Shown in pieces: positions 20,801 to 23,800 of a stretch of 64,000 nt of DNA (its first letter is position 1; every line of letters begins with the position of its first letter). The notes below the pieces were generated by a model, which searched no databases, was not told the origin of the DNA, and saw only the letters and a program-made list of their open reading frames with translations. This stretch comes from Anolis carolinensis. Taxonomy: Eukaryota. The DNA is taken from NCBI RefSeq assembly GCF_035594765.1, contig NW_026943825.1:124001-188000 (forward strand), written 5' to 3'. The translations under genes were made by a program, and so were the position numbers.

Positions 20801-23800
20801 TATAATAATATAATATTATAACAATATATTATTATTAATATACTATCTTGATAATATATAATGCTATATAATATAATATAATAATATAATATTATAACAA
20901 TATGTTATTATTATTAATATATCATTATATAATAATAATATATTATTAATATACTATCTGATAATATATAATGCTATATAATATAATATTATAATATTAT
21001 AACAATATATTATTAATATACTATCTGATAATATATAATGCTATATAACAATATAATATAATAATATAATATTATAACAATATGTTGTTGTTGTTATTAT
21101 TATTATTATTAATAATAATAATAATACATTATACCTGCCTTGCCTTGGGGCTCAAGGTGGGGCACAATATCATTAAAAGAAAGAGATAAGATACAATTAA
21201 AATACAAGATGGGGAAGAGTTCTAATGCTGGTTAAAAAGGCTGTACGTACCGCTGTTCTCCGGAACGTCTAGAGTTTTGACCTGTCCCAGGACCGAGGAC
21301 ACTACAGAGAAGGAGAGGAAAATGCATTAAAACCTTTTCTTTCCACCCTCGTTTGCAAGGAAACCTCTCTCGAGAGGGCAAAAAACAAAGGGAGTGAGGG
21401 CATAATATGTGCAAAGAAGCCAATCTTGCAAGTTGAACATGGCCTGGGTCCTTCCTTCCTTCCTTCTGCAGAAGCAGGAGCTCAAAGGCAAAGAAGGAAG
21501 GAACGGCATTGTCTTACACAGGAAGCGACTCCTGGCCCTGCCCGGCCTGGGGCCCACGCCCGGGCTTTTCCGCTGTCTTCTCGCTCTAGGGCTGCGTGGA
21601 ATCCCAGGCCGCCTTGTCCATTCCAAACCCAGGCAGAGCAAAGAAAACATCCACAGGTTGTCTCCATACCTCACAACCTCTGAGGATGCCTGCCATAGAT
21701 GTGGGCGAAACGTCAGGAGAGAATGCTTCTGGAACATGGCCACACAGCCCGAAAGACATACAACAACCCTGTGATCCCGGCCATGAAAGCCTTCGACAAC
21801 ACACCTCACAACCTCTGAGGATGCCTGCCATAGATGTGGGCGAAACGTCAGGAGAGAATGCTTCTGGAACATGGCCACACAGCCCGAAAGACATACAACA
21901 ACCCTGTGATCCCGGCCATGAAAGCCTTCGACAACACATCCACAGGTTGCTTTTGGAGACATCAAACCCTTTGTGACTTTGAAAACATGACACTGTATTT
22001 AACGTATGGTTGCATTTGACACACATCTTACCTTAACTACCACCATGCCTCTACATTCATACAACAAAAAGAAAAGAAAAATAAAGTCCTAATTAGAGGG
22101 AGAGGAATAATTTGTTGTCGAAGGCTTTCATGGCCAGGATCACAGGGTTGTTGTGTGTCTTTCGGGCTGTGTGGCCATGTTCCAGAAGCATTCTCTCCTG
22201 ACGTTTCGCCCACATCTATGGCAGGCATCCTCAGAGGTTGTGAGGTACCTCACAACCTCTGAGGATGCCTGCCATAGATGTGGGCGAAACATCAGGAGAG
22301 GAATAATTGTTTTTATCCAATTGCTGCCAGTTAGAAGGCTAAGCTCAGCCCACTTGGTCTCCTAGCAACCCACTCAGCCCAGGGGACAGGCAGAGTTAGG
22401 CCTCACTTAGGCTTCTTCCAACCCCTCATCCATGCCTCTACATTCATACAACAAAAAGAAAAGAAAAATAAAGTCCTAATTAGAGGGAGAGGAATCATTG
22501 TTTTTATCCAATTGCTGCCAGTTAGAAGGCTAAGCTCAGCCCACTTGGTCTCCTAGCAACCCACTCAGCCCAGGGGACAGGCAGAGTTAGGCCTCACTTA
22601 GGCTTCTTCCAACCCCTCATCCATGCCTCTACATTCATACAACAAAAAGAAAAGAAAAATAAAGTCCTAATTAGAGGGAGAGGAATCATTGTTTTTATCC
22701 AATTGCTGCCAGTTAGAAGGCTATGCTCCGCCCACTTGGTCTCCTAGCAACCCACTCACCCCAGGGGACAGGCAGAGTTAGGCCTCACTTAGGCTTCTTC
22801 CAACCCCTCATCCATGCCTCTACATTCATACAACAAAAAGAAAAGAAAAATAAAGTCCTAATTAGAGGGAGAGGAATCATTGTTTTTATCCAATTGCTGC
22901 CAGTTATAACGCTAAGCTCTGCCCACTTGGTCTCCTAGCAACCCACTCACCCCAGGGGACAGGCAGAGTTAGGCCTCACTTAGGCCTCTTCCACACTGCC
23001 TATAAAATACAGATTATTTGATTTTAACTGGATTATATGACAGTGTAGACTCAAGGCCCTTCCACATTAATGGACTTAACGTCAGGGGAAAACCTTGACC
23101 CTTGACCTTAACTACCACCAATTCCTCAATACTTTATTTCCCAGACCACCAGACTTCGCCACAGCAACGCGTGGCCGGGCACAGCTAGTATGTATGTATA
23201 TATACATACTAGAATCTATATATATAAAAGAGTGATGGCATCACGGCGACCCACAAAACAACAAAACTACAGGCCCCCCAACCTCGAAATTTGACAACAC
23301 AACCCATCACCCACGCCTCTAGGTTGATACAACAAAAAAGCAAAGAAAAATAAAGTCCTAATTAGAGAGAGAGGAATAATTGCTTTTATCCAATTGCTGC
23401 TAGTTAGAAGGCTAAGCTCCTCCAACTTGGTCTCCTAGCAACCCAATAAAAAATAAGAAAAAACACTAAAAAATAATAAAAAACACTAAAAAATTAATAC
23501 AATAGAATAACATAATAACAAAAAATAATTAAAAGTTATACAAGAAAATAATAAAATATAATAAATTAAAAGGTAACTTACAATAAAATTAATTAAAAAA
23601 TACAAATAAAGTCAAATAAAAATTACACAACAATTTTTAACCAATACCACCACCACTTTGCCACAGCAACGCGTGGCTGGGCACAGCTAGTATATATATA
23701 TATATATATATTCATTGTTAGGTGGAGACCTTTGTGACATTAAAAGTAGCCATATTTAAAAATAATAATTATTATTTTATTTCTTACCTACCTCTCCTTA

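Follow-up and report, generated by a model that had tools for sequence, protein, structure and literature searches.

The window analysed here, a stretch of 64,000 nucleotides of the Anolis carolinensis genome, carries two identical hammerhead ribozyme motifs that follow each other on one strand at a distance of 135 nt. The question that this locus raises is whether such a pair works as a retrozyme-like unit that cuts itself out of a transcript and circularises, as a reading of the letters alone (the sequence-only reading) had proposed, or whether the tandem was produced and spread in some other way.

Structure of the tandem hammerhead pair

The tandem stands as the sequence-only reading had described it: the units at 21668-21802 and 21803-21937, each of 135 bp, are 100% identical, and both motifs follow the order CCU / CUGAGGA / extra U / stem II / GAAA / C-GUC / AGG. 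Stem II of each motif comprises 6 bp (GCCUGC-GUGGGC) with the loop CAUAGAU, and stem III consists, as had been noted, of the palindrome ACGU alone (21710-21713) with the loop absent, so that a monomer is unable to close it. C17 lies at 21714 and 21849, the cut positions given before. The assignment to the minimal type I hammerheads of Penelope-like elements (PLEs) is likewise sound, as the motif contains the CUGANGA / GAAA / NUH core together with stems I and II as well as the PLE-type minimal features, an extra U (21687, between 9 and 10.1) and the pair G21688-C21706 (G10.1-C11.1).

21677..21717, plus strand: first minimal type I hammerhead, with the cut predicted after 21714
21812..21852, plus strand: second minimal type I hammerhead, with the cut predicted after 21849
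21669..21685, plus strand: predicted hairpin CCUCA/UGAGG masking the CUGAGG core (pair probability about 0.75 in the fold)

A 38-nt version of the motif matches 6 times within the window, against 0 matches in 100 shuffles, and for a 41-nt version the genome-wide count of exact matches is 12,566 (control 0). Covariance models did not bear the motif out: an Rfam scan of 15000-30000, the kind of check suggested alongside the reading, gave 0 hammerhead hits at E<=1, and the Rfam miRNA-model matches in the scanned region correspond to the palindrome 22193-22300. Copies throughout the genome were located by sequence patterns.

The units are ends of Poseidon_Ac

Each unit of 135 bp has exactly the sequence of bases -18..+117 of Poseidon_Ac (PAc), numbered from the PAc ATG at 21686 (+1), and of both ends of an intact element (L221; C1:12.98 Mb, 2,664-bp period), whose ORF opens at that ATG and matches RVT_1 (E 2e-13). 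RVT_1 was the sole Pfam match in this ORF; a VY-IPC-CG-VYIG stretch is visible in its translation, and a GIY-YIG endonuclease domain has been assigned to PAc (Frangieh et al. 2024; PMC11167929). The unit also agrees, by eye, with the Poseidon_Ac template printed in that paper, according to which the PAc ORF starts at stem II, the ribozyme cuts 26 nt past the start codon and reverse transcription begins at +111..+118. Here, the cut site likewise lies 26 nt after the PAc start codon.

21668..21802, plus strand: unit 1, PAc -18..+117, identical to the ends of L221
21803..21935, plus strand: unit 2, PAc -18..+115, with PAc +116..+119 coinciding with the first four bases of the target duplication
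21802..21803, plus strand: recurring junction +117 / -18, with 86 exact genome matches
21686..21688, plus strand: PAc start codon (+1), overlapping both A9 and the beginning of stem II (ORF of L221; PMC11167929)
21735..21802, plus strand: AC-rich stem-loop and 'tail', extending as far as the reverse-transcription start +117/+118 (fold; 3' ends of young copies; PMC11167929)

Young PAc copies, picked solely by an exact match to +36..+117 (89 copies, taken from the 100 matches listed of 1,174), have their 3' end at +117..+120 in 77 of 89 cases. The insertion in the window shows the marks of PAc insertion, namely a 3' end at the internal reverse-transcription start, 5' truncation and a target duplication. 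The ribozyme pair is the already tested hammerhead of this known lizard element, and the ribozyme itself is not new.

A young insertion in an intron of a JAM-A/F11R-like gene

The insert measures 275 bp (21661-21935), lacks the TATA-like box of the pLTR and is flanked by a 14-bp target duplication.

21647..21660, plus strand: target-site duplication, left copy, 14 bp, identical to 21936-21949
21661..21667, plus strand: PAc pLTR bases -25..-19, 5' end of the insertion (match to L221)
21936..21949, plus strand: target-site duplication, right copy, 14 bp; empty-site contigs keep one copy

Contigs of the sequencing runs X3 and X5, which come from two studies, contain the empty site, joined exactly at the target duplication and not at the ribozyme sites, so that the insertion is young and polymorphic; contigs of X15 end at the borders of the filled site. 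Splicing or ribozyme excision was rejected as the source of the 'empty' contigs, because the joint lies on the target duplication and the X3 and X5 contigs share two linked variants absent from X15. The window dimer is one young Poseidon_Ac insertion with its terminal 135 bases doubled, and its two units are variant-free.

The host gene is JAM-A/F11R-like and lies on the minus strand, so that the dimer is intronic and antisense to F11R, as the sequence-only reading had it. A second PAc insertion sits in the same early intron.

16760..32354, minus strand: host gene, JAM-A/F11R-like (PDB best hit JAM-A, E 5.5e-11)
16760-16945, 17986-18123 and about 19057-19190, minus strand: Ig exons of the host gene
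32255-32354, minus strand: candidate first exon of the host gene
22113..22246, minus strand: second PAc insertion, a single unit whose hammerhead is intact, in the sense orientation of the host pre-mRNA
22247..22294, plus strand: fold-back arm of the second PAc insertion, turning at -18, with damaged hammerhead (GAAACAUC)

This second insertion (22113-22294) has its own 14-bp duplication (22099-22112 and 22295-22308), and its unit at 22113-22246 is 98-99% complementary to each dimer unit. It adds an intact third motif (22197-22234, minus strand), fully paired in the predicted minus-strand fold, and a damaged fourth (22259-22296). Two single PAc ends of greater age, whose hammerhead cores are damaged, lie at 39154-39191 (minus strand) and 60735-60772 (plus strand).

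Several other features of the window were recorded. A 191-bp tandem of 3.7 copies begins where the second PAc insertion has its right target duplication, and nearby a repeat ending in a hairpin plus CTAG (regions 22028-23188 and 23290-23710) is presumably Helitron-like. A 243-aa ORF (8706-9437, minus strand) has a P-loop (GEPAVGKS) and a DLPSIG motif, and we take it to resemble an interferon-inducible GTPase. Positions 1-36000 hold unusually many unrelated intronic tandem repeats with periods of 50-370 bp; so repeat-rich a window (C16, 0.124-0.188 Mb) fits a recombination-rich chromosome end.

A recurring junction near chromosome ends

The tandem unit recurs as a family, with the exact +117/-18 junction at the 86 genome matches given above; all 29 other places that carry it were fetched. 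A looser pattern returned 155 junction matches in the 135 register versus 1 in the 137 register, although the latter offers a perfect CAT overlap. Arrays comprise 2-23 units, begin in pLTR or ORF ends, with first units that run on into the pLTR or ORF of different subfamilies, cluster by chromosome and share variants. Segmental duplication of a single array is ruled out by the flanks, which differ between arrays. Among the 33 arrays surveyed, in which the unit counts of L061 and L080 merge several arrays, a clean 12-15-bp target duplication surrounds array, pLTR and inverted arm in 11, a duplication of at least 8 bp is absent from 11, and the other 11 have short or doubtful matches. Own target duplications together with differing flanks and first units indicate separate PAc insertions that carry one junction. 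The last unit is tail-less in five arrays (L077, L079, L080, L082, L084), and array periods other than 135 occur.

On C1 and C3-C6, the distance to a chromosome end is at most 6.5 Mb for 8 of 9 junction loci (p 5e-10), a threshold picked after the data had been seen and with one C2 locus (periods 130-133) left out; most remaining junction loci are on small contigs. Young single copies are evenly spread along C1 (100 in 148.6 Mb, among the 100 matches listed of 1,174), and the 135 junction was present in 0 of the 89 young C1 copies among these matches. At C16:114-598 kb, with copies sorted by eye, arrays account for 3 of 7 young insertions (p 2e-4) and the 135 junction was found in 0 of 8 older tail-bearing single copies. 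All 3 young loci that match the exact pattern at this end are arrays, where about 0.3-0.6 loci are expected from the C1 density. Dimers with a tail-to-pLTR junction at about -39..-44 are found in chromosome interiors as well (among the 100 matches listed of 233).

Other PAc arrangements were encountered in the same searches. At three chromosome ends, in L061, L079 and L088 (C9 1.3, C16 1.0 and C5 0.99 Mb), the 135-bp arrays are preceded by another junction that recurs, made up of -17..+54 and an AT-rich linker with an 80-bp period; it is also present in sequencing-run contigs. L125 and L126 (C6 4.5 and C9 11.7 Mb) consist of full -18..+117 units, up to 19 of them, with (AAT)n spacers of varying length. 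Four exact PAc ends at C1:78536301-78542258, spaced 2,664 bp on each strand and head to head, are apparently two full-length PAc elements in inverted orientation.

The border at -18

The 5' end falls at -17..-23 in 22 of 79 evaluable young copies versus 3 at -24..-48 (among the matches listed), a count that omits 10 copies with a different pLTR variant; up to 3 of these may end at -24..-48, which would raise the latter number to at most 6. In 7 further young copies among these matches, an inverted arm ends at -18..-20. Most of the -17..-23 ends are fold-backs at a TA palindrome; fold-backs with both arms to -17 number 1,077 and those with arms to +41 number 252, and the turn lies exactly at -18 in 14 of the first 50 listed (by eye). 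The 5' ends joined to (AAT/ATT)n form a broad -17..-23 group among about 29 loci with no sharp spike (by eye, among the 100 matches listed of 795). One PAc fold-back at -18 (C1:3014583-3014626) contains two TTAGGG telomere-type repeats inside its junction.

A TATA-like run in the pLTR starts at -51, and CCATACC spans the boundary between 21661-21667 and 21668-21670, with its A at 21666 (-20). We assume that this motif fits the initiator consensus, with A at -20 and a fitting spacing from the TATA-like run. Judging by these motifs and the 5' ends, PAc transcription likely starts at -20/-18; the -18 border could alternatively stem from the TA palindrome or from a hairpin whose base lies at -17. 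Back-splicing was rejected as a source of the junction, since in the window subfamily no GT follows +117 (the next bases are ATT) and no AG precedes -18.

Variants shared between arrays

In a survey of 30 array loci with 168 units, where a variant counted as rare if present at most once in 301 other copies, rare variants were common to 31 locus pairs against a null of 10 +/- 3, a level reached in 0 of 5,000 trials, with the qualification that the null assumes equal site mutability and the sites shared most often (28, 30, 92) fall in predicted hairpin loops. The background copies are mostly from C1, and 89 of the 301 were chosen for an exact match over positions 54-135. Pairs on the same contig make up 16 of the 31 versus an expected fraction of 0.325 (p 0.02). 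The variant 28C is present at 4 of 18 young array loci versus 0 of 268 single copies, and 30G at 4 of 18 versus 1 of 270. The subfamily marker 85G, found in 10/10 C15 arrays and 0/9 C16 arrays, sorts subfamily by chromosome.

Six shared junction-proximal variants, chosen after the data had been seen, occur in later units only at 11 loci and in the first unit at 3; the mirror polarity before the junction was not seen, with 100G, 113C and 123T present in last units. L077 and L078 have array-specific variants in unit 2 that are absent from their own unit 1 and inverted arm, and in L078 unit 2 has 28C and is free of the 58A found in both unit 1 and the inverted arm of that locus. The 30G and 91G of array L083 recur in a single copy 1.2 kb away from it, L065 contains alternating 270-bp patterns, and a private variant is shared by both units of the dimers L063, L066 and L079. 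A single ordered master array was rejected, as the young arrays have no common variant order; GC-biased change (26 vs 17 in arrays, 29 vs 25 in the background) is uninformative. Variant sharing, mosaic second units and tail-less last units together imply that arrays draw on other arrays, and their local clustering favours transfer at the DNA level.

Proposed cleavage and release of a circle

The proposal that a plus-strand transcript would be cut at both sites to release a 135-nt RNA that could circularise found no support. In a nearest-neighbour model the double-hammerhead fold lies 21-24 kcal/mol above the ensemble, and 39 kcal/mol for a transcript long enough to include the inverted copy, which lies 170 nt further downstream; since the model ignores core tertiary energy and protein help, this cost would lower the likelihood of cutting without excluding activity. 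The identical PAc ribozyme cleaves in the presence of PAc protein only, its cleavage is dispensable for insertion, zero RNA-seq reads start or end at the ribozyme site, and the first 172 nt of the ORF are required for PAc insertion in vitro (PMC11167929). The insertion in the window has no TATA-like box, and arrays start in the pLTR and stop at reverse-transcription start sites, not at the ribozyme site. Nor are the 5' ends of young PAc copies piled at the ribozyme cut, with 4 of 89 at +28/+29 among the matches listed and, counted by eye, about 3 of about 42 at +30/+31. The modelled cost of the active fold (21-39 kcal/mol) and the absence from the unit of +119..+172, which PAc insertion needs, both speak against the release of a 135-nt circle. 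Dimers of other minimal motifs cleave weakly (PMC4209133); among Xenopus minimal-motif dimers, 1 of 9 cleaved.

The ribozyme core is intact in 137 of 165 array units. CpG core sites change like other CpG sites (11 changes in 3 sites vs 26 in 6), and at non-CpG sites the core is changed less often than the rest (6 in 11 sites vs 118 in 102), a difference partly forced by the search pattern. Core-breaking changes have spread within arrays (44T in 8/23 units of L083, 41G in 4/11 units of L061), and selection gives the array ribozymes no clear protection. As 135 bp amount to 45 codons that are stop-free in the PAc frame (21686-21935 in the window), arrays read as long repeat ORFs, such as one of 1,060 aa in L083 (3283-6462), and a hypothetical 135-nt circle would be an endless ORF containing AUG.

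Origin of the arrays

The observations on the arrays comprise PAc identity, target duplication, an empty site, a recurring junction, a position bias and variant sharing. We put the probability at roughly 0.55 that a rare junction is copied at the DNA level from subtelomeric arrays into nearby single copies, with the ribozymes likely passengers. PAc RNA would likely begin at -20/-18 and be reverse-transcribed from +117/+118 (PMC11167929), which would make -18..+117 the natural shortest cDNA. The first junction may have arisen when the enzyme, as it would do rarely, restarted at +118 after the RNA 5' end, or alternatively when a copy landed in its own pLTR. A single copy would then gain the junction from a near-identical array by ectopic gene conversion and keep its own flanks, in the setting of recombination-rich chromosome ends, and unequal exchange would likely grow dimers to as many as 23 units. 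All four steps are likely ones that we infer, and no conversion event was seen as such; for the window locus, where neither unit holds a variant, the transfer step is deduced from the family. What speaks against DNA-level transfer is that young arrays are in excess at the C16 end, that older copies there are unconverted, that the mirror polarity is missing and that loops may be hypermutable; the C16 excess would also fit arrays that were inserted as arrays.

Such an array might be born at each insertion, if the PAc enzyme runs to the RNA end at -18 and begins anew at +118 (or insertion takes place into its own pLTR), independently each time, and the array then expands as DNA. This would directly explain both unit borders, the single 12-15 bp target duplication that encloses array, pLTR and inverted arm in 11/33, the young and unmutated window dimer, the five tail-less last units, which need a second template, and the interior tail-to-pLTR dimers among the matches listed. 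It predicts an even spread, however, where the junction is found in 0/89 young C1 copies and in the interior at 1/9 macrochromosome loci, and it leaves array-specific variants common to several loci unexplained; we consider it unlikely. Slippage of DNA at each locus, purely local and using the weak likeness between tail end and pLTR in a tandem-duplication-rich region, would agree with the many unrelated tandem repeats in the window, with the private variants in both units of L063, L066 and L079 and with a 5-nt likeness in the 135 register of two subfamilies. Only 4/8 bases match in the window subfamily, however, the 137 register with its perfect CAT was seen once, and slippage can neither add a tail where the last unit is tail-less nor move variants between loci, so that we rank it lowest and very unlikely.

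Between these two in our estimate, and quite improbable, stands a nascent retrozyme, in which dimeric hammerheads, perhaps with PAc protein, would cut array RNA into 135-nt circles that PAc re-copies, preferentially nearby. We give the same low credence to a retrozyme that is only now coming into being, in which the unit between the PAc transcription start and the reverse-transcription start would have turned into a self-propagating family: array RNA, cut by cis-dimer hammerheads with PAc protein, would circularise and act as the first PAc template, PAc mRNA being taken up afterwards, and this would place array-specific variants in the downstream units, where they are seen. The intact cores of most array units, the cis tandem, which is the arrangement that minimal hammerheads need (PMC4209133), the array-specific variants in downstream units, which reverse transcription makes first, and the young arrays in excess at the C16 end speak for RNA circles, and the arrays fall under the working definition of an active non-LTR retrozyme given by Li et al. 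2026 (bioRxiv 10.64898/2026.07.22.740005). Against them stand the lack of +119..+172, the modelled cost of 21-24 kcal/mol, a PAc ribozyme that is protein-dependent, dispensable for insertion and without RNA ends (PMC11167929), first units that continue into the pLTR and ORF of different subfamilies, the spread of core-breaking changes, the missing 5'-end pile-up at +30 and the 8/9 Xenopus dimers left uncleaved; RNA-borne copies would also be expected to scatter. With two defined unit borders and traceable variants, DNA-level and RNA-circle spread differ in testable predictions.

Comparison with known systems

The arrays belong to Poseidon_Ac and to the minimal PLE hammerheads, and they resemble a non-LTR retrozyme. 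With PAc as described in PMC11167929 they share the unit sequence, the position of the ATG where stem II begins, a cut that falls 26 nt past this codon, a 3' end at the published reverse-transcription start and a target duplication with short tail homology. The consulted part of that paper covers pLTR-ORF-pLTR tandems and single truncated copies without 135-bp ORF-less arrays, and contains neither a cis dimer assay nor a mapped transcription start, for which the arrays point to -20/-18 as likely. The minimal PLE hammerheads of Cervera and De la Pena 2014 (PMC4209133) have the same core, the extra base 9/10.1, G10.1-C11.1, a long stem II and a palindromic 15.2-16.2 with no loop 3, as here. Their tandem motifs, as presented there, lie about 3 kb apart or on opposite strands, whereas those found here are 135 nt apart on one strand, with a stem I of just 3 bp, unlike the motifs of that study. 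The same 5'-truncated tandems, head-to-head inverted copies, palindromic junctions and optional 30-40-bp tails have been described by Arkhipova et al. 2013 (PMC3846280) and Craig et al. 2021 (PMC8557442), and the Adineta Pen2a pLTR likewise has a TATA and an initiator-like motif; the structures in the consulted parts of these papers are one-off, whereas here one junction is found at at least 30 loci with shared variants.

Non-LTR retrozymes (PMC7229834; Li et al. 2026) are likewise ORF-less head-to-tail units with a type I hammerhead each, and likewise come from a PLE pLTR and form multimers near chromosome ends (Li et al. 2026). Animal retrozymes are argued in that work to derive from PLEs, with birth from a PLE end and subsequent unequal crossover proposed and the mechanism left open. 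Like the elements that Li et al. 2026 count, the arrays contain at least two ORF-less units in direct tandem succession, with their type I hammerhead complete. The retrozyme of Cervera and De la Pena 2020 (PMC7229834), however, has a canonical type I hammerhead, about 170-400 nt and a G+C content under 45-50%, compared with a minimal motif, 135 nt and 53% G+C (hand count) here. Unlike retrozymes, the arrays, known here from DNA alone, remain attached to PAc pLTR/ORF ends. The exact junction, the two borders and the passage between loci are not described in the consulted part of Li et al. 2026, whose supplementary tables may list the family, and a literature search found no account of 135-bp PAc arrays. 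What is new is the recurring, locally spreading 135-bp array family around a ribozyme already known. Pipelines that label any such tandem an 'active retrozyme' may count passengers, and the family offers stages that can be dated, from a dimer that is still polymorphic up to arrays of 23 units, all derived from the one PLE that works in vitro.
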